Shown here: in pieces, positions 1 to 55,053 of the stretch
How the letters are laid out: every line of letters starts with the position of its first letter
Position numbering within the stretch: the stretch's first letter is position 1
Source: Escherichia phage 55
DNA: 64,000 nucleotides
Reading direction: 5' to 3' (one strand)
Sequence record: OQ599310
Made by a program: the position numbers and the translations under genes
Notes under the pieces: model-generated
Database searches by the model: none
The model's input: the letters and a program-made list of their open reading frames with translations, nothing else
Told to the model about the DNA's origin: nothing

Positions 1-39
1 TGTGTTACTATAGACATGTCAACTAGAGGAGAAATCAAA

Positions 40-498
40 ATGACTATCAATTCAGACGTTTTTATCCGCCGCAATAAACTCCGTCGAATCTTTGAAACGG
101 AGTTCCGCAAAATAAATGCCGGTATAAAAGATGCTGCAAAGTCTCTTGGACTACCAGGCTTTCATATCAAGTATTCTCAACATCTCTTAGATCGTGCCAT
201 CCAGAGAGAAATAGATGAGAATTACGTTTTTGAATTATTTCATAAAGTAAAAAATCATGTTAAAGAAGTTGCAGAATTTTTATCAATGCCGGCACGTCCA
301 GATGTTGATGAAGATTTTGTCGAAGGTGTCGAATATCGCCCAGGCCGTTTAGAAATAACTGACGGAAATCTTTGGTTAGGACTTACAGTCTGTCGCGAAA
401 ATCCAGCATTCAAAATGAAGACTCTTCAATGCAGAATGGCTATTATTAACAGTAAACGACTACCAGGAAAAGCTTCTAAAGCAGTGATTAAAATCTAG
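40..498 (+). CDS. regB: RegB-like sequence-specific endoribonuclease
   Basis: 152-aa ORF; GAGGAG RBS precedes ATG at 40 (track start 16 is an upstream in-frame ATG); size and position upstream of tk match T4 regB. Confidence 0.6.
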   Translation: MTINSDVFIRRNKLRRIFETEFRKINAGIKDAAKSLGLPGFHIKYSQHLLDRAIQREIDENYVFELFHKVKNHVKEVAEFLSMPARPDVDEDFVEGVEYRPGRLEITDGNLWLGLTVCRENPAFKMKTLQCRMAIINSKRLPGKASKAVIKI

Positions 499-506
499 AG
501 GTAAAC

Positions 507-1049
507 ATGAGAAAAGCACTACTCGCTGGTCTATTTGCTCTTTCGTTATCAGCACATAGCTCCGAGCATACTTTTAGTAATGTCCAACTCGATAACTTGA
601 ATTATGCTTATCAGTTTGGGGAACAGTTTTCTAAGGACGGAAAATTTAAAACGCATGAAAATATGCATAAGAAAGGACTTGGATACATAATGGCCGCAAT
701 ACTATGGCAAGAATCATCCGCAGGTATTAATCTTAAAGATAAGAAAGGTCACCATGCGTATGGAATGTTCCAAAACTATCTACCAACAATGAGGGCAAGA
801 ATTAACCAGCTTGGTTATAATATGACTGATGCCCAAATTAAGAAAATGCTATCTAAGCGGTCTAATTCAGCAAGATGGGCTTATATCGAATTTTCTTATT
901 GGTTAAATATACATAACGGGGATATAAGAAAAGCTATATCCTCATATAATGCGGGATGGAAGACAAGTGCTGGAAGTAAATATGCTTCTGAAGTCCTAGA
1001 AAAGGCTAATTACCTTAAATCAAATAAACTACTGGAAATAAAAGAATGA
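507..1049 (+). CDS. exported lytic-transglycosylase-like protein
   Basis: N-terminal signal peptide (MRKALLAGLFALSLSAHS); E-S...GMFQ...YNAG pattern resembles SLT-domain motifs. Confidence 0.45.
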   Translation: MRKALLAGLFALSLSAHSSEHTFSNVQLDNLNYAYQFGEQFSKDGKFKTHENMHKKGLGYIMAAILWQESSAGINLKDKKGHHAYGMFQNYLPTMRARINQLGYNMTDAQIKKMLSKRSNSARWAYIEFSYWLNIHNGDIRKAISSYNAGWKTSAGSKYASEVLEKANYLKSNKLLEIKE

Positions 1050-1393
1050 CCAAAGTGTTGGCTTTAATAGTTGGCTTGGTTTCATTTAACACTCTTGCTA
1101 ATACTACATATACTGATGTAACGGAGTATACAAACAGAACGGCGTCTGATTATTGTGGTAAAAGCCAAGAGTGTAAAGTAGATTTTTCACAAAAATTGTT
1201 ATATGCGTATAAAGACGGAGAAAAAGATTGGGCGTCTAGTAGGTTCAAGGCGTCTACCTTAATTAAAAGATACTATAAAAAATGGCAAATATTAGAATGC
1301 TCGGTGGCGGAACCTAAAGATAAGGCAGCATGCAATTCTATGGTGGACCGTCTAGTTGACTCTTATAATAGAGGACTTGCAGCAAGTGATTAA
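1046..1393 (+). CDS. small exported protein
   Basis: 115-aa ORF with hydrophobic N-terminal signal sequence; ATGA overlap with upstream gene. Confidence 0.5.
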   Translation: MTKVLALIVGLVSFNTLANTTYTDVTEYTNRTASDYCGKSQECKVDFSQKLLYAYKDGEKDWASSRFKASTLIKRYYKKWQILECSVAEPKDKAACNSMVDRLVDSYNRGLAASD

Positions 1394-1853
1394 AAACTAT
1401 ATCAAGGGCGATATTGTCGCCCTGTTTTCTAAAGGTAATAATATTGCTCATGGGTGTAATTGTTTTCATACAATGGGCGCCGGTGTAGCAGGCCAATTAG
1501 CAAAGGCTTATCCAAAAATTTTAGAAGCCGATAAACTTCAAACCGAATTCGGAGACGAGTCTAAACTCGGGTCTTATTCGGTTTATGAAAAATATTTTAA
1601 GACCCATAAAGCTTATTGCTTTAATCTTTATACACAGTTTGAGCCCGGACCTAATTTTGAGTACTCTGCTTTAATGAATTGTATAATAGAATTAAATGAA
1701 TTCGGAAAGAATAAGATAACAAAGCCTGTAATTTATATGCCAAGAATTGGTGCAGGTATCGGTGGCGGAAACTGGGATATCATCGAAGAGATTTTAGATA
1801 CGTATTCCACTAAACTAGAAATTGTGATTGTTGATTGGGAACCATTATTATGA
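1356..1853 (+). CDS. macro-domain (ADP-ribose binding/hydrolase-like) protein
   Basis: GDIVALF...NIAHGCNCFHTMGAGVAGQL and PRIGAGIGGG resemble macrodomain Gly-rich loops; start uncertain (38-nt overlap with upstream ORF). Confidence 0.5.
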   Translation: MTLIIEDLQQVIKNYIKGDIVALFSKGNNIAHGCNCFHTMGAGVAGQLAKAYPKILEADKLQTEFGDESKLGSYSVYEKYFKTHKAYCFNLYTQFEPGPNFEYSALMNCIIELNEFGKNKITKPVIYMPRIGAGIGGGNWDIIEEILDTYSTKLEIVIVDWEPLL

Positions 1854-2062
1854 ATATACATTATCCACATCCATACGACCCAAAGAATAAGGCAGTAATT
1901 ATTCGTCAATGGGAACGCATTTGCCGTACTAAATGTCCAATTAATAGTCCACATGATGTAGATAAAGACTACATTGGAACATTCGTTGAATATACCTTTA
2001 TTGATAAGAAAGGTCGTAAACAGCATGTAGAAGAATACTGCTTAAAGGTGACATGGTTATGA
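1835..2062 (+). CDS. hypothetical protein (75 aa)
   Basis: ORF in tight early-gene array; start overlaps upstream gene. Confidence 0.4.
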   Translation: MGTIIMNIHYPHPYDPKNKAVIIRQWERICRTKCPINSPHDVDKDYIGTFVEYTFIDKKGRKQHVEEYCLKVTWL

Positions 2063-2265
2063 GCCAAACAAAAATTCTTACAGGCGCTAAATGCGAAAAA
2101 TGCGAATGGCCTGTAGTTTTTGCTTTATGCAATGACGAAATGGCTTGTGATTTTGATTATTGGTGTTACTGTTCGAACAAAGGTTGTAGCAATCATAAAG
2201 GTGAAGGGTTTTACTCAGGATTTTACCCTTACCCAGATTTCGTTAAAGAAGGTGAACCTAAATGA
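2053..2265 (+). CDS. Cys-rich small protein, putative zinc-binding
   Basis: 70 aa with multiple CxxC-type pairs (CEKCEW..., CYCSNKGCSNH). Confidence 0.45.
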   Translation: MVMSQTKILTGAKCEKCEWPVVFALCNDEMACDFDYWCYCSNKGCSNHKGEGFYSGFYPYPDFVKEGEPK

Positions 2266-2444
2266 AATTGACTAAAGAAGAGAAAGCTAAACTGTTAGAA
2301 CTTATCCATGACCTATTGGATGAACAAGCAGCCACCAATGCGTACGATGAATATGCTCCTTTGACGGACGAAGAATATCACGCATTGATGGAATCATTTG
2401 ACAGGAAAGAACAAGAACTCATTGACTACGTGAATTCACTATAA
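2262..2444 (+). CDS. hypothetical acidic protein (60 aa)
   Basis: ATGA overlap with upstream ORF; helical acidic sequence. Confidence 0.45.
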   Translation: MKLTKEEKAKLLELIHDLLDEQAATNAYDEYAPLTDEEYHALMESFDRKEQELIDYVNSL

Positions 2445-2453
2445 GGGACTCTT

Positions 2454-3035
2454 ATGGCTAGTTTAATTTTTACATATGCCGCTATGAACGCTGGTAAGTC
2501 TGCTTCATTACTTACTGCCGCACATAACTATAAAGAACGTGGCATGGGTGTATTAGTTCTTAAACCGGCTATTGATACTCGTGATTCAAAAGGTGAAATA
2601 GTCTCTCGTATTGGTATTCGTCAGGATGCCAATATAATTACAAAAGACATGGACATCTTTGAATTCTATAAATGGGCTGCAGCACAAAAGGATATTCATT
2701 GTGTATTTGTTGACGAAGCTCAGTTCTTAACTACTGAAAAGGTGTATCAACTTAGTCGTATTGTTGACGTATACAATGTGCCAGTAATGGCATATGGGCT
2801 ACGAACAGATTTTAAAGGTAATCTATTTGAAGGTTCTCAAGCATTAATGGCTATTGCCGATAAGCTTGTTGAACTTAAAGGTGTCTGTCATTGTGGTAAA
2901 AAGGCCACAATGGTAGCTAGAGTCACGGAAGACGGACTTCCAATTACAGATGGCAGTCAAATTGAAATTGGTGATACCGATAGATATGTGTCATTATGCC
3001 GGAAGCATTGGAATGATTTGACAGGGTTGTTATAA
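2454..3035 (+). CDS. tk: thymidine kinase
   Basis: MASLIFTYAAMNAGKS P-loop start, CHCGKKA zinc motif; near-collinear with T4 Tk as recalled. Confidence 0.95.
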   Translation: MASLIFTYAAMNAGKSASLLTAAHNYKERGMGVLVLKPAIDTRDSKGEIVSRIGIRQDANIITKDMDIFEFYKWAAAQKDIHCVFVDEAQFLTTEKVYQLSRIVDVYNVPVMAYGLRTDFKGNLFEGSQALMAIADKLVELKGVCHCGKKATMVARVTEDGLPITDGSQIEIGDTDRYVSLCRKHWNDLTGLL

Positions 3036-3038
3036 ATA
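3031..3038 (+). promoter_or_regulatory. late-promoter-like TATAAATA overlapping tk stop codon
   Basis: exact TATAAATA about 25 nt upstream of the ATG at 3063. Confidence 0.35.
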
Positions 3039-3062
3039 CTAATATCTAATCAAGAGGTATAT

Positions 3063-3275
3063 ATGTAGCAATTAAACGAAAGACAACTTCGTAATCTTAC
3101 TGTAACCCAATTGGATGAAATCCGAAGAGAATTAGGACATTCTATTTCTCATTTAAATGAGGATATCCGTCAAACTGGTTCTAAAGCTGATTATACACGC
3201 AAGCGCAAGCTGGAAAAATACCTCACAGATGTTAAGGCCGTCCAAAGGCGAAAAATAAATACTGGCCAAAATTAA
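3063..3275 (+). pseudogene. small ORF with in-frame TAG as codon 2 (possible amber-interrupted gene between tk and rI)
   Basis: AAGAGG RBS, ATG at 3063 followed directly by TAG, then 68 sense codons with protein-like composition ending TAA at 3273..3275. Confidence 0.3.
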
Positions 3276-3287
3276 CAGGAGGCCTAT

Positions 3288-3590
3288 ATGGCCTTAAGAG
3301 CGATAGCTGTCATAGCGATGCTGGGGTTTTTTGCAGCAACAACTCCTATCGTTGGTACTGCACATATCGACCCATATTTTGATAACTTTATGGAATCAGG
3401 GATTAAAAACGTATATACTTTGTTTGAAATTCAAAATGTCGAGAATTCTGAAAAATTCTATAAGTATATGGCAAAGCATTACAAAAATAGTCCCTGTGAT
3501 GATGCATTTGAATGTCATGAACAAGGCATAAAAACCGCCAGACAATTTGCTGAGTTCATGAAAATAAAATTAGAGCCTACATCTATCTAA
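3288..3590 (+). CDS. rI: lysis-inhibition regulator RI-like protein with signal-anchor
   Basis: 100 aa, hydrophobic N-terminus, AGGAGG RBS; position downstream of tk and size match T4 rI. Confidence 0.6.
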   Translation: MALRAIAVIAMLGFFAATTPIVGTAHIDPYFDNFMESGIKNVYTLFEIQNVENSEKFYKYMAKHYKNSPCDDAFECHEQGIKTARQFAEFMKIKLEPTSI

Positions 3591-3596
3591 TTTACT

Positions 3597-3625
3597 AGCC
3601 CCTTCCGAAAGGTTGGGGCTTTTTG
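3597..3625 (+). terminator. rho-independent terminator after rI
   Basis: AGCCCC...GGGGCT stem with inner GAAA loop followed by TTTTT. Confidence 0.55.
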
Positions 3626-3635
3626 GCATTTAGCA

Positions 3636-3664
3636 GTTTACTTTTCCTCAGGTTGTGTTATAGT
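3636..3664 (+). promoter_or_regulatory. early promoter (sigma70-like, -35 GTTTAC, -10 TATAGT, 17-nt spacer)
   Basis: GTTTAC 3636..3641, TATAGT 3659..3664. Confidence 0.55.
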
Positions 3665-3691: not shown

Positions 3692-3871
3692 ATGACACGT
3701 AAAGAAAAAATTTCTAAGTTAATGTTTTTGATTGAAGAGTACGCTAATGCGGTATCTGATTGGGAAAATGCTCATGGTTGCGAAGATGGAGACATCGACA
3801 TTAACAGGGCCATGAAAAAGATGGCTGATACGCACACCGAATTGCAAATGTATGTTAACGAGATTATGTGA
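3692..3871 (+). CDS. hypothetical small protein (59 aa)
   Basis: GAGGAG RBS before ATG at 3692; track ORF 3623 extends upstream through the promoter. Confidence 0.5.
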   Translation: MTRKEKISKLMFLIEEYANAVSDWENAHGCEDGDIDINRAMKKMADTHTELQMYVNEIM

Positions 3872-4088: not shown

Positions 4089-4126
4089 TTTACAACTTGA
4101 TAGGACTATGTTATAGTAGTCCTATC
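4088..4126 (+). promoter_or_regulatory. early promoter with 10-bp inverted repeat spanning the -10
   Basis: GTTTAC 4088..4093, TATAGT 4112..4117; GATAGGACTA / TAGTCCTATC arms. Confidence 0.55.
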
Positions 4127-4145
4127 AAACCGAACGGAGAACAAA

Positions 4146-4256
4146 ATGAAACTTTTGCTTATCGCTTATGTTGTAGTACAATACAATTATCCGATGTTTA
4201 CTTATAACATGGTAAACGGCATAGTGAATCTTATTGAAATGAGTATGGTAAAATGA
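4146..4256 (+). CDS. small hydrophobic ORF (36 aa), not in track
   Basis: GGAG RBS before ATG at 4146; stop overlaps next start as ATGA. Confidence 0.3.
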   Translation: MKLLLIAYVVVQYNYPMFTYNMVNGIVNLIEMSMVK

Positions 4257-4432
4257 CCCGTGAACAAGCTAATAAATTGATGGACCTTATCCGTGACCTA
4301 CGTGAAGCCGATTCAGATTTGAATGATGTAGCTTATCACGCGGTAAATGATAACGGAGACTTTTATGAAAATCAGGTTGACGCTTGCCAGAATGCTTTGG
4401 TGAATTTTGTTGAAACTTTAATTGGTGAATAA
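4253..4432 (+). CDS. small acidic ORF (59 aa), not in track
   Basis: ATGA-coupled start; protein-like sequence; stop 2 nt before next ATG. Confidence 0.4.
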   Translation: MTREQANKLMDLIRDLREADSDLNDVAYHAVNDNGDFYENQVDACQNALVNFVETLIGE

Positions 4433-4433
4433 T

Positions 4434-4964
4434 ATGAAAACTGTAATTGAAACAACAGAGTTGTTCGGTGATTTATGTATTGAAAAACGCGGTTATGCTT
4501 ACGTTCTGACGCAAGAAGATGATTCTGTTACTATTCTTCCTATGGAACTGGACAAGATTTTGAAACTCAATCCGCCAGGCCATGCATCTGTAATTAACAT
4601 CGATGAAGACCTTCAAGTTCGTTTTTATCACGGTCTTTATAGTGGGGTTAATATCGAAACAGAAGATGAATGCCTTTCTATCAATAATTGGAAAACATTC
4701 GTCACTAAGGTGAAAGAATTAATGGAATCTGAAATAGCCAAAAAGGCCAAACTTCAATGGGCTAAATGCCGTAATGCTTTTATTACAAATCAGGACCGCC
4801 CTGACTATACAACAGTCCTAGGCGTTAATCCTTCTTATGAAGATGGCGATGTTGTAGTTATTCGTCAAATTGATGACCTTCGTCAACATATCGTTACATT
4901 AGACAAAGATGAAGCAGTTGCTCTTAAAGCTTATCTCGATTCTATTATCCCGACTTTGAAATAA
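4434..4964 (+). CDS. hypothetical protein (176 aa)
   Basis: ATG at 4434 (track start 4422 is TTG). Confidence 0.6.
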   Translation: MKTVIETTELFGDLCIEKRGYAYVLTQEDDSVTILPMELDKILKLNPPGHASVINIDEDLQVRFYHGLYSGVNIETEDECLSINNWKTFVTKVKELMESEIAKKAKLQWAKCRNAFITNQDRPDYTTVLGVNPSYEDGDVVVIRQIDDLRQHIVTLDKDEAVALKAYLDSIIPTLK

Positions 4965-4973
4965 GGAATTATT

Positions 4974-5447
4974 ATGATTATCAATGAAAACTCTTGGCAC
5001 TTTAAAATTTATGCCGCGTTCAATAGTACATGGAATCGTCCGAAAACGTTGTGTGCTTATTTTTGGAAAACGTTAATCCCGGTATTGGCTGTTTCAATTA
5101 TTGGATTTGCGATTTTAGCAGCAGTCACAATCGTTGGCCAGGAAATTTTAACTAAATTCTTTGTTTTTAGCAGTCTATGGACATTAGTTCCAGCCTCAAT
5201 TGGTGTAGGCATTTTAATTGTAGCAGTCATGGCTTTTATTGCTACCGGGTTAGTAATTGGTCCGTCTTGGTTGTTAGACAAATATAACGACAGAAAATAT
5301 TATAAAGAAATTGAGCTCATTGCGCAAAACCAAGAACGAATTAAAAATGGACTTGAGCCTATTGAACGTAAGAAATCATTAATAGGTGAATACCTTAAAG
5401 CTCGTAAAGAAAAAGTCTGTCCTACTCTTGAATATAAGGCTAAATGA
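4974..5447 (+). CDS. membrane protein (multi-TM N-terminal region)
   Basis: long hydrophobic segments (LIPVLAVSIIGFAILAAVTIVG..., VPASIGVGILIVAVMAFIATGLVIG). Confidence 0.6.
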   Translation: MIINENSWHFKIYAAFNSTWNRPKTLCAYFWKTLIPVLAVSIIGFAILAAVTIVGQEILTKFFVFSSLWTLVPASIGVGILIVAVMAFIATGLVIGPSWLLDKYNDRKYYKEIELIAQNQERIKNGLEPIERKKSLIGEYLKARKEKVCPTLEYKAK

Positions 5448-6433
5448 TGAAAACAATTATGAAAGGCTACTTTGGTAGCCACCTTTATGGAACGTCTACT
5501 CCTGAATCTGACGTCGATTTTAAAGAAATTTATGTCCCTCATGCTCGTGATATCTTGACAGGTAACGTTAAAGAACATATGAGCAAGAACACGAATAACA
5601 CATCTTCTAAGAACACAAAAGACGACGTGGACCATGAGTTGTATAGTCTCAAATATTTCTTTAAACTAGCTGCGGATGGTGAAACTGTTGCATTAGATAT
5701 GCTTCACACTCCACCAAGTCTAGTAGTTAAATCTGATTTGCCTGATGTATGGAAGTATATTCAAGATAACAGGTCTCGTTTCTATACCACTAACATGAAA
5801 TCTTATTTAGGGTATGTCCGTAAGCAAGCTTCTAAATATGGTGTCAAGGGTTCTCGACTGGCTGTTCTTCGTCAAGCCCTTAAACGTTCTAATGAATGGG
5901 GACAATACTTTGATAACGGTGCAGTAATTCGTTTATCACATATGAAGAATGTTCTGCCTGTAGGTGAATTTGCTTCGTGGGTTGAAACCGAAAACGAGAA
6001 AACAGGTAAGCAAACATTCTATAATCTGTTAGACCGTAAATTCCAAGATACGTTAACCAATAAAGAGTTCAATGCCATCCTGGTTAAACTGGAAGAGAAC
6101 TATGGCGAACGTGCTCGTAAAGCAGAAGCTAACGAAGGTATTGACTGGAAAGCATTGAGTCATGCATGTCGTGGTGGACTTCAATTATTGGAAATTTACA
6201 AAACCGGCGACCTGGTTTACCCACTTCAGGATGCTCCATTTATTCTCGATGTTAAGCTTGGTAAACATACGTTTAAAACTGTACAAGAATTCCTAGAAGA
6301 TATCGTTGTCCAAGTTGAACATGCGTCAGAACAAGCTGCCAAGAACGGTATGCAACAAAAAGTAGATATGAGTTTCTGGGATGATTTCCTTGAGCAAGTC
6401 TATCTCGAAAATCATAATTCTTACTATAAATAA
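5444..6433 (+). CDS. nucleotidyltransferase-fold protein (Pol-beta-like)
   Basis: N-terminal YFGSHLYGTSTPESDVD fits the G[GS]-x(9-13)-DxD NTase signature; C-terminal ~200 aa unassigned. Confidence 0.5.
   Translation: MMKTIMKGYFGSHLYGTSTPESDVDFKEIYVPHARDILTGNVKEHMSKNTNNTSSKNTKDDVDHELYSLKYFFKLAADGETVALDMLHTPPSLVVKSDLPDVWKYIQDNRSRFYTTNMKSYLGYVRKQASKYGVKGSRLAVLRQALKRSNEWGQYFDNGAVIRLSHMKNVLPVGEFASWVETENEKTGKQTFYNLLDRKFQDTLTNKEFNAILVKLEENYGERARKAEANEGIDWKALSHACRGGLQLLEIYKTGDLVYPLQDAPFILDVKLGKHTFKTVQEFLEDIVVQVEHASEQAAKNGMQQKVDMSFWDDFLEQVYLENHNSYYK
6425..6432 (+). promoter_or_regulatory. late promoter TATAAATA
   Basis: exact TATAAATA 33 nt upstream of ATG 6465. Confidence 0.5.
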
Positions 6434-6464
6434 GTAGATAAATAACCCTTAACTTGAGGTAAAT

Positions 6465-6725
6465 ATGAAAAAATTAGCAATCGGTTTATTCGCAGTAATG
6501 ATGGCATTCTCTGTTGGTGCTACCACAGGAGCTGGTGGTAACCAGTCTTCTGGGCCTTCCAACGGTTCGGTAAATGCATCACATTCTCAGGGTATTGAGA
6601 ATATCAAATCAAGCTATATTAATAGCACGGCCGGACAAGCAACTGAAGCATGGTCAAAGGGTCGAGTAGTTACACGCTCCGTATTCTGTGATATGCCTAA
6701 TTATGTTGCTAAGTGTGATAAGTAA
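6465..6725 (+). CDS. small secreted Gly/Ser-rich protein
   Basis: signal peptide MKKLAIGLFAVMMAFSVGA; preceded by late-promoter motif. Confidence 0.6.
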   Translation: MKKLAIGLFAVMMAFSVGATTGAGGNQSSGPSNGSVNASHSQGIENIKSSYINSTAGQATEAWSKGRVVTRSVFCDMPNYVAKCDK

Positions 6726-6730
6726 ATGTG

Positions 6731-6750
6731 GGGACCTTCGGGTCCCTTTA
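6731..6750 (+). terminator. stem-loop terminator with UUCG tetraloop
   Basis: GGGACC-TTCG-GGTCCC followed by TTTA. Confidence 0.55.
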
Positions 6751-6777
6751 GGGGGTTAAAATATTTTTAAAAAGTAG

Positions 6778-6812
6778 TGTACATGCTTTTAGGATATGAT
6801 ACTATAGACCTA
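6778..6812 (+). promoter_or_regulatory. early promoter (-35 TGTACA; conserved ACTATAGACCTATC downstream box)
   Basis: TGTACA 6778..6783 followed by GATACTATAGACCTATC. Confidence 0.45.
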
Positions 6813-6843
6813 TCGAAACGAAATGAGTAAATTGGAGAATAAA

Positions 6844-7824
6844 ATGTTCAACGTTCAAATCAAAAAAGGTATCTATCGTAATAACGAAATCTCTGGTTCT
6901 TATGTTGCCACAAAGACCTGGTTCCCGGCAAAGCTTAATCCTGAATGTTCCCACTTAGGTGATGGTAAAATTTTCGTTATGATTGATGGTTCTGAACGTG
7001 GAGTATGGGTCTTCAAATCAGACATCGTAATGGAAGGAGTTGAGACGTCACCAGTTGCAGTTGTTGAAAGCACTGAAGATATGAAAACTCGTATCAACAA
7101 ACGCTTTAAAGTAATGAACATGATGACGAATGGCATTATTGATGGCAAAATTCGTTCACTCATTATTTCAGGTGCAGCTGGTATTGGTAAGACGTATTCT
7201 CTGGATAAAGCACTTAATAATGCTAATGATAATGGTTTCATCAAATACAAAAGCATTAATGGTAAAATCTCCGGTATTGGCCTTTACGAACAACTTTGGC
7301 TCAACCGTGATGAAGACAGCGTTCTCTTAATCGATGACGTTGACGTATTCTCAGATATGGACATCCTGAACCTTCTTAAAGCAGCATTAGATACCGGCGA
7401 TAAACGCAAAGTTTGTTGGAGCACTGCGTCATCTTATCTCGATGATAAGGGTATTGATAAAGAATTTGAGTTTGAAGGTACTATCGTTTTCATTACAAAC
7501 GTTGATATCGATAAAGAGTTAGAACGCGGTTCGAAACTTGCTCCGCACCTTCAAGCTTTAGTATCTCGTTCAGTGTATTTAGACCTTGGAGTACACTCTA
7601 ATGAAGAGATTATGGTTCGAGTTGAAGATGTAATATTATCTACTGACATGATGCAGAAACGTGGTCTGACGGATGCAGAAACGTATAAAGCATTGTCCTG
7701 GATGAAGGCTAACGTATCTCGTCTTCGCAATGTATCATTACGTACGGCTCTTTATGTAGCAGATTTTATTTCAACCGATAAAGATGGTTGGGAGGAAATC
7801 TCTGAAGTAACTTTACTGAAATAA
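6844..7824 (+). CDS. P-loop ATPase
   Basis: Walker A GAAGIGKT, Walker B VLLIDDVD; GGAG RBS before ATG 6844 (track start 6823 lacks RBS). Confidence 0.6.
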   Translation: MFNVQIKKGIYRNNEISGSYVATKTWFPAKLNPECSHLGDGKIFVMIDGSERGVWVFKSDIVMEGVETSPVAVVESTEDMKTRINKRFKVMNMMTNGIIDGKIRSLIISGAAGIGKTYSLDKALNNANDNGFIKYKSINGKISGIGLYEQLWLNRDEDSVLLIDDVDVFSDMDILNLLKAALDTGDKRKVCWSTASSYLDDKGIDKEFEFEGTIVFITNVDIDKELERGSKLAPHLQALVSRSVYLDLGVHSNEEIMVRVEDVILSTDMMQKRGLTDAETYKALSWMKANVSRLRNVSLRTALYVADFISTDKDGWEEISEVTLLK

Positions 7825-7962
7825 GCTTATAGGAAGTTCTGAGGTAACAAAAGCCATAAAGATGAATAATCATATGGCTTACCTAAAAGAAGGACACCAG
7901 GAACCTACTGAGGGCATAGAAATATTTAAAAATAATGATGTACAAATCAAAGAGGATATGTT

Positions 7963-8250
7963 ATGGATTTTATGCAAAAAATTAAAGCCGCAGTCGAACT
8001 CTATGCTCATCGTATGGTTAGTTCTACGATGCAATATAGCGAGGAGGTTCGCCAGGACTCTTCCTTGAAAGGAAAAACTAAAGCCTTAATTACCTTAGAT
8101 CATTTGCAAAAGAGTGCCATAGAGATGCTCCAGTACGACAAGGATGCGTATAAGAAAGAACAGGAAGAGAAACTTAAATCTGAAAAATTACAAAAAATCC
8201 CGAAGTCGGTTTGGTTCAGTGGAAAAAATACCGAAAAAAGTTTCTTTTAG
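7963..8250 (+). CDS. hypothetical protein (95 aa)
   Basis: AAGAGG RBS before ATG 7963. Confidence 0.5.
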   Translation: MDFMQKIKAAVELYAHRMVSSTMQYSEEVRQDSSLKGKTKALITLDHLQKSAIEMLQYDKDAYKKEQEEKLKSEKLQKIPKSVWFSGKNTEKSFF

Positions 8251-17815: not shown

Positions 17816-18028
17816 ATGTATAAATTTCGTAAAGGTTTAGCTGATTTTCTTACAACTGTAACGTTCTTTTTGTTTATGGCAGTTGGAGCTATTTTTCTTA
17901 TTCCTTTTACTGTTGTATTTTTCGTGATTAGTTTAATTTCTCCGGAAAAGGGTTTATCCTCCAGCGAATTCAATGAACGTTTGGACAAAATTACTAATAA
18001 ACTGAATTCTGTTCTTGGCAAGGAATAA
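17816..18028 (+). CDS. small membrane protein
   Basis: ATG 17816 with AAGGG RBS; central hydrophobic stretch. Confidence 0.5.
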   Translation: MYKFRKGLADFLTTVTFFLFMAVGAIFLIPFTVVFFVISLISPEKGLSSSEFNERLDKITNKLNSVLGKE

Positions 18029-18030
18029 TT

Positions 18031-18339
18031 GTGGAACACAACAAGATTGAAATTTATGGCATCCCTGAAGAAGTAGGACGTTGTCCAGGATGTTATACTG
18101 TTACAAAACTTTTAAAGGAGCTCAATGCTCCTTATACATTTTATAAAGTCCTCACTAATAATGGTAAGATTGAATATGACCGTCCTTTAATTGTATCTCT
18201 TGCTAAACGTGCAGGATTCACTTCACTTAATATTCGTTATCCTGTCATATTTTTAAATGGTAAGAAACAAAAGAATATTGCAGAGTTTAAAAAGTCCTTG
18301 ATTTCATTAGGATACGACTCTGATATCATAGAAGATTGA
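18031..18339 (+). CDS. nrdH: glutaredoxin-like protein NrdH
   Basis: CPGCY redox motif; GTG start 6 nt after AAGGA. Confidence 0.75.
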   Translation: MEHNKIEIYGIPEEVGRCPGCYTVTKLLKELNAPYTFYKVLTNNGKIEYDRPLIVSLAKRAGFTSLNIRYPVIFLNGKKQKNIAEFKKSLISLGYDSDIIED

Positions 18340-19627: not shown

Positions 19628-19867
19628 ATGGAACAAGAATTAGACATTATTACATCGAAAAAACGTCTTGAAGTTGTAGTGACCGGCTCAACTATTAAGT
19701 TTGTATATGACACTTTAACTGATGCTATTACCGTTAGTTGTGGCGGAAAGGCTTTTAGTCTAGATTCTACTGAAAACAAATACCCGTTCTATAAAGGTAT
19801 CTTTGATATGGGTGTTGATATCAGTGTTCGTCAAGCAAACTATTTACATTATCTTATCACGAAATAA
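19628..19867 (+). CDS. hypothetical protein (79 aa)
   Basis: GAGGAG RBS before ATG 19628. Confidence 0.5.
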   Translation: MEQELDIITSKKRLEVVVTGSTIKFVYDTLTDAITVSCGGKAFSLDSTENKYPFYKGIFDMGVDISVRQANYLHYLITK

Positions 19868-42206: not shown

Positions 42207-42213
42207 AATGGAA
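42195..42213 (+). repeat. 19-nt gene-junction repeat copy 1 (GAGGAAATCTAAAATGGAA)
   Basis: exact duplicate at 42400..42418. Confidence 0.8.
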
Positions 42214-42411
42214 AATATGGCTAAAGTGTTGTTTATTGGTTGGTTTGAAAATGGGAATATGTTTACCAAAGAAGTTACCATGGACGTGTCTGATAAAGAC
42301 CAAATCCTACGGGCCACTTCTCAATTTGCTGAAGTAAATAAAGCTTTAGTTGAAGCATTTGTTGATGATAAGAAAGTTTTTGAATCCGATTGGCGTAAAG
42401 AGGAAATCTAA
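42208..42411 (+). CDS. hypothetical small protein (67 aa)
   Basis: GAGGAAA RBS before ATG 42208. Confidence 0.5.
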   Translation: MENMAKVLFIGWFENGNMFTKEVTMDVSDKDQILRATSQFAEVNKALVEAFVDDKKVFESDWRKEEI

Positions 42412-42418
42412 AATGGAA
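42400..42418 (+). repeat. 19-nt gene-junction repeat copy 2
   Basis: exact duplicate of 42195..42213. Confidence 0.8.
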
Positions 42419-42553
42419 GAAGTAGAATGTGTAGTGTGTGGTTGTAGCGTCTATGAAGACGAAGCTGTTTTCGATGCATATGATAATGCGACTTGTTTAG
42501 ACTGCGACCGTGAATCTGAAGAACATGCTTACGAGCATGAAGACGAGGAATAA
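42413..42553 (+). CDS. small acidic zinc-ribbon protein
   Basis: CVVCGC...CLDC pairs; 46 aa. Confidence 0.5.
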   Translation: MEEVECVVCGCSVYEDEAVFDAYDNATCLDCDRESEEHAYEHEDEE

Positions 42554-42565
42554 AATAAAATAATT

Positions 42566-42600
42566 GTTTACAGGGGTCTATGGTAGTGATACTATAGACC
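42566..42600 (+). promoter_or_regulatory. early promoter (GTTTAC + conserved ACTATAGACCTATC box; GGTCTAT/ATAGACC inverted repeat)
   Basis: GTTTAC 42566..42571. Confidence 0.5.
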
Positions 42601-42623
42601 TATCAACTATAGAGGAAATTGAA

Positions 42624-53609: not shown

Positions 53610-54104
53610 ATGAATATCAATACTACGGCTACTTACATCCTGAAAGATGAAAAACAAATCAACTGGTATGGTGCTTCAGTGCGAGCTTATGAAAAGTTTT
53701 GTGAAATTTTAGGTGCCACTCAAGGTAATAGTTTCACTATTGTTAACTTCATCAAACAAGTTGAAGGCCCTTGGTTATTCTTAGAAATTAAAAATTCATA
53801 TGGTACAATTTCTACTACCGCCCTTCCAAGCACCGACTTTGAACTGCTGATTGAAGAAGTAGAACCCGTTAAAGATATCTGTATTGATATGGATATCGCT
53901 TGTATGTACGGTACTCTTATTAAGCCTATTGAGCCTACTGATTTGCTGTGTAAATATGTTTCAATTCGACGCCCATTCGCTGGTCCAGTAAATGGATGGG
54001 TAACTGATCAGTGGATTGAAGACGGTGTTGAACTTCTGAACGTTGTTCATGCCGGTGATTTTAGTGTGGTTCCACGTAGTGCAGTAGTTAATATTCTAAA
54101 TTAA
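53610..54104 (+). CDS. paralog 1 of a three-gene family (conserved C-terminal GW[IV][ST]DQW[IV]EDG...N[IV]V...GDF.VV)
   Basis: ATG 53610 (track start 53568 is a TTG inside the promoter repeat). Confidence 0.55.
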   Translation: MNINTTATYILKDEKQINWYGASVRAYEKFCEILGATQGNSFTIVNFIKQVEGPWLFLEIKNSYGTISTTALPSTDFELLIEEVEPVKDICIDMDIACMYGTLIKPIEPTDLLCKYVSIRRPFAGPVNGWVTDQWIEDGVELLNVVHAGDFSVVPRSAVVNILN

Positions 54105-54168: not shown

Positions 54169-54624
54169 ATGATTACTATTGGTGAAATTAAGCGTGTATC
54201 GTCTGCATCTCGTTCTAAAGCTGCAGGTCGTCTAGTTGAAGTGGTAGGACTTCGTACTAATGGTACTGGACGTGTTAAAGAAGTTAAAGTTCGAATCATT
54301 CCTAGTTCTGGAAAAACTGAAACTCAGTACGCTTACGTAAGTCCTAAATTCTTGGAAACTCATGTGAGCGCTCATTTTGCTTCTACTGAACCTAATGTAC
54401 AGTTCAAATGGGCCCTTTGCAAAGGCGTTGAATTCCGGACTGATAAAGAATTTGATTTCATCGACGAATATGGTTATCCAAACAAAACTGATATTATGTG
54501 CGGCTTCATCACTGACCAATGGGTTGAAGATGGTGAAAAGTTATACAATATCGTATTCTTAGGTGACTTCCGAGTTGTTAAAGAATCTGAAATCACTCGC
54601 TATGTGTCTCCTCGTAAAGCTTAA
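54169..54624 (+). CDS. paralog 2 of the three-gene family
   Basis: shares N-terminal SRSK(A/V)AG(R/K)LVEV and C-terminal GFITDQWVEDGEKLYNIVFLGDFRVV with paralog 3. Confidence 0.55.
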   Translation: MITIGEIKRVSSASRSKAAGRLVEVVGLRTNGTGRVKEVKVRIIPSSGKTETQYAYVSPKFLETHVSAHFASTEPNVQFKWALCKGVEFRTDKEFDFIDEYGYPNKTDIMCGFITDQWVEDGEKLYNIVFLGDFRVVKESEITRYVSPRKA

Positions 54625-54633
54625 GGAATTATT

Positions 54634-55053
54634 ATGAATATTGTAAATCTCTCTACAGGTGATTACGTATATGTATCTGTTGCTTCTCGCTCTAAAGTTG
54701 CCGGGAAGTTGGTTGAAGTTCTTTCTGTGAGTGATCCGGTTTTTGGTCGTAACCAAGTTAAAGTTCGTGATGCTAATGGTAATATTGGCTACGTCTCAAG
54801 CCAGTTCATTGAGCCAGAAGAAAAAGCGTTCAAATGGGGACTATGCAGATCAGTTTCTGTTGAAAAAGACCATGAATTCACTATTGCCGCGGCAACTGAT
54901 GGAACGCCATGGAAAACTAAGCAAATCGCCGGATTTATTAGCGACCGTTGGGTAGAAGATGGTGTTAAGCTTTATAACATCGTTTTCGCTGGTCAGTTCA
55001 TGGTAGTTCCTGAATTCCAAATTAAAAAATATAGCCCAGCTGCTTTCGCATAA
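54634..55053 (+). CDS. paralog 3 of the three-gene family
   Basis: GFISDRWVEDGVKLYNIVFAGQFMVV. Confidence 0.55.
   Translation: MNIVNLSTGDYVYVSVASRSKVAGKLVEVLSVSDPVFGRNQVKVRDANGNIGYVSSQFIEPEEKAFKWGLCRSVSVEKDHEFTIAAATDGTPWKTKQIAGFISDRWVEDGVKLYNIVFAGQFMVVPEFQIKKYSPAAFA

Follow-up and report, generated by a model that had tools for sequence, protein, structure and literature searches.

A private CAG-to-TAG change at codon 2 of the accessory gene rI.1, upstream of the antiholin gene rI, in a Mosigvirus phage

The locus lies in a 64-kb stretch of DNA from Escherichia phage 55, the whole of which is referred to here as the window, and all of the features described for it are on the plus strand. The thymidine kinase gene tk (2454–3035; Pfam TK, E 7.3e-57; 100% amino acid identity to tk of phage MM02) ends with the stop codon TAA at 3033–3035, and downstream of it, in the same reading frame, lies an ortholog of rI.1 (3063–3275) of 70 codons plus a stop that is broken at codon 2. 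The sequence TATAAATA at 3031–3038, which overlaps the tk stop, is a T4-type late promoter core for the rI.1–rI transcript; the preliminary description had already placed a late-promoter motif here, and this is borne out by the conservation of the core in 12 lineages and by the late promoter described at this place in T4 (PMC2962797). In each of the 12 lineages an ATAAATA core lies 29–35 nt ahead of the rI.1 ATG. Within the 64 kb of the window TATAAATA has three copies (at 3031, 6425, and 47241), all on the plus strand, compared with 7.4 expected from shuffles, and outside likely late promoters the motif appears to be avoided. The leader that follows contains a motif at 3046–3050 that reads CTAAT here and CTAAC in the relatives, the result of a private C>T change at 3050; the final C is kept in all 11 other lineages and in 33/33 Mosigvirus copies.

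The Shine-Dalgarno sequence of rI.1, AAGAGG (3052–3057), stands five bases ahead of the ATG at 3063–3065, and in the relatives (A/T)GAGG or GGGG is kept at the same spacing. The ATG is followed immediately by a TAG amber codon (3066–3068), which alignments with the relatives identify as an ancestral CAG (Gln2) altered by a C>T transition at 3066, and then by 68 sense codons (QLNERQ...NTGQN) and the stop TAA at 3273–3275. The ribosome binding site, the ATG with its adjacent TAG, and the 68 in-frame codons were all listed in the preliminary description, and each is present in the sequence and its translation. The first in-frame start-type codon past the amber, a TTG at 3111–3113, is rejected as a restart site for reasons given below. 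The Shine-Dalgarno sequence of rI, AGGAGG, lies at 3277–3282, and RNA folding predicts a hairpin over the rI start (GAGGCC-UAUAU-GGCCUU, 3279–3295) that begins 4 nt past the rI.1 stop. The antiholin gene rI itself (3288–3590) is intact, with a Pfam Antiholin match at E 2.9e-24 and 100% amino acid identity to MM02, and is followed at 3597–3625 by a hairpin and U-run (fold -16 kcal/mol, z -2.4) that is likely the intrinsic terminator of the rI.1–rI unit. Past this hairpin and U-run there is an early-promoter-like site, TTTACT-16-TATAGT, at 3637–3664.

The operon of T4 consists of rI.1, rI, and rI.-1 and has two promoters, an early one that lies 3.3 kb upstream and a late one in the interval from tk to rI.1 (Golec et al., PMC2962797). 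The gene rI.-1, which belongs to this T4 operon (PMC2962797), follows rI in T4 and in several other genera, and a search of the window with the available N-terminal part of T4 rI.-1 detected no homolog. The transcription unit of Mosigvirus thus differs from that of T4 in ending with a terminator after rI, without the downstream rI.-1, and appears to consist of rI.1 and rI alone.

For a wider view, 104 genes were mapped onto the window from the annotation of MM02, one of which runs past the MM02 end. Three genes of 59–62 aa near tk and rI (2262–2441, 3692–3868, and 4253–4429) are labeled DUF7438 in contigs of the relatives and form a scattered small paralog family, and cross-hits of the MM02 proteins reveal a paralogous trio at 53610–54101, 54169–54621, and 54634–55050 with 43–62% identity. 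Accessory genes have turned over relative to MM02 at about 18026–18040, 42208–42623, and 19628–19864; MM02 genes of 105 aa and 70 aa have no counterpart in the window, and two small ORFs are just 56–61% identical to MM02 where their neighbors exceed 95%. An Rfam search returned no family anywhere in the window.

The window belongs to Mosigvirus (RB69-like Tevenvirinae) and shares 96.5–96.9% identity, over 25 kb, with the closest relatives in GenBank. When codon 2 is restored to Gln, the 70-residue protein matches phrog_1826 over positions 1–70 of 70 (E 6.6e-36); the amino acid identity of the ORF to T4 rI.1 (UniProt Y05Q) is 63.8%, and the annotations of JS09 and T4T name the gene rI.1. Searches with RI.1 of NCBIfam, and of a Pfam copy that does not contain PF26904 (Phage_T4_Y05Q), gave no significant family match; PF26904 is a precomputed assignment on 99%-identical homologs. 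By tblastn, rI.1 is found in 923 phage records, nearly full length in 921 of them; representatives of seven genera-level lineages all have 70 codons, and the proteins in 15/15 homolog clusters are 68–70 aa. Given the full-length phrog_1826 match of the restored protein and the 923 records, the 68-codon open stretch in this A+T-rich DNA is not a product of chance. The dN/dS values of rI.1, 0.12–0.47 with dS saturated, are those of a gene that is, by this comparison, under purifying selection. In all lineages examined (at least 12) rI.1 lies 7–12 nt upstream of rI, even where its upstream neighbor is not tk. The window copy likewise sits directly upstream of rI and behind a late promoter, and what sets it apart from the family is the intact frame of about 70 codons, which is interrupted by the TAG at codon 2. 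Judged from the sequence, the ORF is the Mosigvirus ortholog of T4 rI.1 and represents a disrupted allele of a known family. It resembles T4 rI.1 in its 70 codons, its place between a late promoter and rI, and its start context, and differs from it at codon 2, which is CTA (Leu) in T4, CAG in Mosigvirus, and amber here. This codon is not conserved across genera: three lineages besides Mosigvirus have CAG, T4 has CTA (Leu), and CC31 and kv8 have AAG.

The ancestry of the amber codon is evident from the closest relatives. An open rI.1 of 70 codons is present in every one of the 33 Mosigvirus copies read, so the possibility that relatives have no ORF at this place, one of the outcomes that the preliminary description would have taken against its proposal, does not apply, and the ortholog alignment that it had called for gives CAG at codon 2 in 33/33 of these sequences. 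The TAG version is private to the window. The window's 46-mer spanning the TAG is found in 0/152 phage records, IMG/VR holds the CAG version three times and the TAG version not at all, and a metagenome scan in which codon 2 was left free returned four contigs, all with CAG, while the same type of scan of a genome collection returned none. Past the amber the window has just one private change, C>T at 3158, which is synonymous, and it encodes the same 68 residues there as JS09; hence either the amber arose recently or selection still acts on the frame. Three readings of the locus had been offered at the outset, an amber-inactivated accessory gene, a lab-derived amber mutation, and a start at a non-canonical codon, and it is the first of these that agrees with the identity of the ORF as rI.1, the CAG of the relatives, and the private C>T in the window. 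We conclude that rI.1, a known accessory gene, very probably has in the window a private, spontaneous CAG>TAG (Gln2>amber) allele, which would be a natural null or severe hypomorph. The event is of a kind already known, an ordinary private knockout mutation and not a coding trick.

We propose that the consequences for RI.1 synthesis would be as follows. The signals needed for expression of rI.1 are in place, namely the late promoter, the Shine-Dalgarno sequence, the ATG at 3063, and 68 codons with unchanged amino acids. Where the host has no amber suppressor, the ribosome would initiate at ATG 3063, the UAG would enter the A site, and release factor 1 would end translation after fMet. Without a usable restart codon essentially no RI.1 would be made, and we infer that RI.1 protein is lost in this phage, although natural read-through of the UAG may occur at a low level.

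A sequencing error or minority variant, with CAG as the true state of the population, might come to mind for a single-base difference in one genome among roughly 190 relatives, and the preliminary description had named an error at the TAG as grounds for abandoning its proposal. In an independent assembly by Logan, however, contig SRR23720769_177 is 100% identical to window positions 1–3625 and reads ATG TAG CAA; gene calling left the interval from tk to rI empty in it, and the TAG site lies outside any homopolymer. The presence of the TAG in a Logan contig of run SRR23720769 means that the stop is in the reads and is not the result of editing or an artefact of a single assembler, although this assembly may share the reads of the window, such that TAG could appear in both through a systematic error in the reads or because the population is mixed. 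We consider an error or minority variant improbable. A second Logan contig from the same run, contig_214, is 100% identical to window positions 4100–7964. The phage is represented in SRR23720769 only as contigs of about 4 kb, and these two leave uncovered the stretch between window positions 3625 and 4100, which hints at low coverage or at a mixture of related phages in that sample. Our literature search found no paper that mentions this run. A different origin of a genuine TAG would be a lab-made amber mutation, produced by chemical mutagenesis or engineering. CAG>TAG via C>T is the classic hydroxylamine-type amber change, and the three window-private changes within 3000–3290 are all C>T, yet three private changes in 243 nt correspond to the background density of 0.8%, and no mutagen signature is seen among the 201 window-private substitutions found over 25 kb by comparison with four relatives, which form a balanced spectrum (T>C 47, C>T 40, A>G 36, G>A 29, and 49 transversions). 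Nonsense codons are also rare, as rI.1 is the only one of the 104 mapped genes with an internal stop, and the first 25 kb contain one nonsense change where about 7.7 would be expected from 201 random substitutions with that spectrum. The gene is, moreover, non-essential and would thus escape a conditional-lethal amber screen. The allele resembles the amber mutants of classical T-even genetics in being CAG>TAG and in being suppressible by supE with restoration of Gln, and it differs from them in its non-essential gene, the missing mutagen signature, and the absence of any other amber in 104 genes. In other respects the genome resembles that of a natural isolate, about 3% diverged from every record. 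We therefore regard deliberate mutagenesis as a very remote prospect, and the initial suggestion of a lab-derived amber is not supported in that form, although a spontaneous mutation may have become fixed during lab propagation.

The remaining alternatives concern the protein output of the locus. The most plausible of them, though itself rather unlikely in our view, is that the allele is conditional, and that propagation on a supE/glnV44 K-12 host (DH5alpha, JM109, or C600) leads to insertion of Gln at the UAG and synthesis of the ancestral protein at reduced dosage. The supE (glnV44) suppressor inserts Gln at UAG, and with CAG as the ancestral codon this would yield the wild-type sequence; the rest of the rI.1 frame is free of decay, and DH5alpha, JM109, or Top10 is given as the host in several records of related Mosigvirus phages. 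A null mutation of very recent origin would, however, leave the ORF just as undecayed, and there is no tRNA in the 64-kb window and thus no phage-borne suppressor in it, the tRNA cluster of the phage lying outside the window. In favor of a conditional allele, over-produced RI.1 is toxic (PMC2962797), and the mutation would then be neutral, or favored on account of this toxicity. Initiation elsewhere, whether at a non-canonical start codon, by reinitiation at TTG 3111, or through a bypass like that of gene 60 from AUG 3063 to AUG 3115, could be entertained given the 68 intact codons past the TAG, the in-frame TTG, and the AUG that lies 49 nt after the take-off codon. No start codon other than ATG 3063 is suitably spaced from the Shine-Dalgarno sequence, however, and it is here that the family profile and all homologs begin; all 15 homolog clusters encode 68–70 aa. 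TTG 3111 has no Shine-Dalgarno sequence upstream, its use would cost 16 conserved N-terminal residues, including the invariant L4, L9, R10, N11, L12, and Q16, and the 54-aa product that it would generate has no record in the contig collection. We thus set aside the non-canonical start that had been suggested, and give any such initiation hardly any weight. Landing at AUG 3115 in a bypass of the T4 gene 60 type would put the ribosome into frame +1, where it would read five codons before a stop, and this candidate was rejected. Finally, the stop might be functional in itself, through programmed read-through or TAG reassignment, or as a selected “start-stop” regulatory mini-ORF. In E. coli, termination at UAG is comparatively weak when the next base is C, and the leaky stop of tobacco mosaic virus, a signal that acts in eukaryotes, has the context UAG-CAA-UUA. 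In this case, CAA-TTA after the TAG is simply ancestral codons 3 and 4, the stop is missing from every relative and is not a conserved feature, and stop usage among the mapped genes (TAA 61, TGA 33, and TAG 9 among the 104) means that TAG is an ordinary terminator here. The chance that the stop is recoded or has a selected role is, we believe, negligible. Hence, the private null or hypomorphic allele of rI.1 is the reading that we carry forward.

What is known of RI.1 comes from T4, in which it is a protein of 70 aa with a pI of 10.2 (PMC2962797). When over-produced it is strongly toxic and causes filamentation, and this toxicity is relieved by RIII and restored by RI; when co-expressed with RIII or RI, RI.1 lengthens lysis inhibition (PMC2962797). 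Golec et al. proposed that the RI:RIII:RI.1 ratio tunes lysis inhibition (PMC2962797), and in the review by Abedon the role of rI.1 is still undefined (PMC6832632). Our search of the literature accessible to it found no loss-of-function study or knockout phenotype of rI.1. A parallel to the present allele comes from Escherichia phage vB_EcoM-fHoEco02, a Tequatrovirus in which 9 bp immediately ahead of the rI.1 start codon are deleted (PMC5981032). As in the window, the translation-initiation region of rI.1 has a private lesion, and the phage is a natural isolate; it differs in that the lesion is a leader deletion and not a nonsense codon, in belonging to another genus, and in that an effect on translation was only surmised by its authors.

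The rI.1 amber may also affect the gene downstream. In the predicted hairpin, the G of the AUG and the five bases after it (codons 2–3) are paired with the 3' half of the rI Shine-Dalgarno sequence, and an equivalent helix is predicted in 10/12 lineages, at -10 to -13 kcal/mol. In one lineage the helix is maintained by a double compensatory change (G-C to U-A); this is the one clear compensatory pair, the arms are mostly invariant, which is uninformative, and differences in loop length shift the 5' arm in an ungapped alignment. Serratia phage LC53 has a longer, re-registered helix and CC31 a weak helix only. The rI initiation region is predicted to be the most stable of those of the 104 window genes, at -13.3 kcal/mol, where the median is -2.55 kcal/mol and the next most stable region reaches -9.4 kcal/mol, and the rI.1 stop lies 3–7 nt ahead of the helix. 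From the known ribosome footprint, a ribosome terminating at the rI.1 stop would open the hairpin. With an amber at codon 2 ribosomes would no longer reach that stop, the hairpin would stay closed, and translation of rI would drop, and less RI would weaken lysis inhibition. Such a polar drop in rI translation is, on the strength of the folding predictions, a tentative suggestion that may well prove incorrect. Shine-Dalgarno-sequestering hairpins and translational coupling are known from the MS2 coat and replicase genes and from the T4 lysozyme gene e on early transcripts. The rI.1–rI junction resembles these in that a stable hairpin sequesters the downstream Shine-Dalgarno sequence and AUG just past the upstream stop; it differs in that the early and late rI transcripts would both contain the whole hairpin, and the hairpin is, at this point, a prediction for rI. 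In T4, plasmid-borne rI alone failed to complement an rI mutant, for which the authors invoke RI instability and host shut-off (PMC2962797), and this failure also fits with coupling of rI.1 and rI. Our literature search found no paper describing rI.1–rI translational coupling. Polarity of the Rho type was considered separately and rejected, the untranslated stretch 3069–3287 being A-rich with a C/G ratio of ≤1.27 and an unconvincing Rho-loading region.

Structure prediction provides a further clue to RI.1 itself. AlphaFold models of the 68 post-amber residues reach a pLDDT of 94.1 without an alignment and 95.5 with a 16-sequence alignment, and consist of a short N-terminal helix followed by a two-helix hairpin, which is the fold of ribosomal protein uL29 (L29/L35). 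With this model as the query, the top 50 Foldseek matches are all chains from ribosome entries, and as a check of chain identity a uL29 profile matches those same PDB chains with E values down to 1e-30. At the sequence level, the RI.1 profile searched against PDB with hmmsearch has L29/L35 as its best matches at E values of just 0.27–2, and no member of the RI.1 family (0 of 8) matches Pfam L29 at E ≤10. Aligned by hhalign, RI.1 and L29 are co-linear, with a P of ~4e-4, a probability of 23–36%, and a score of 23, compared with 9.8±2.1 for 200 column permutations (0/200 reach 23) and 13 for the reversed control. Thus, RI.1 and uL29 have a predicted fold in common with a sequence identity of 13–24%, and we propose that RI.1 has, as predicted by these models, the fold of ribosomal protein uL29. 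The homolog in Serratia phage X20 is already named “50S ribosomal protein L29”, which means that the resemblance had been noticed by an annotation pipeline, and our search of the literature found no paper linking rI.1 to ribosomal proteins.

These two predictions can be combined in a hypothetical scheme in which RI.1 would be a phage mimic of uL29 whose own translation is needed to open the rI hairpin, such that the amber would be polar on rI and the phage would be a natural r-like variant with weakened lysis inhibition. As a whole we regard this scheme as speculative and probably not correct in all of its parts; if true, the phage would be a ready-made tool for testing the function of RI.1. 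The uL29-like fold and the hairpin at the rI start suggest testable links among the ribosome, RI.1, and antiholin synthesis.

For annotation, the stretch is best labeled as rI.1 disrupted by an amber codon, and neither as a new small ORF nor as a gene with a non-canonical start. For the biology of these phages, the allele would amount to a naturally occurring knockout, and so far the part that this gene plays in lysis inhibition has been probed only by over-expression (PMC2962797). As a ready-made knockout of a poorly understood gene, it could supply the loss-of-function phenotype that is missing for rI.1.
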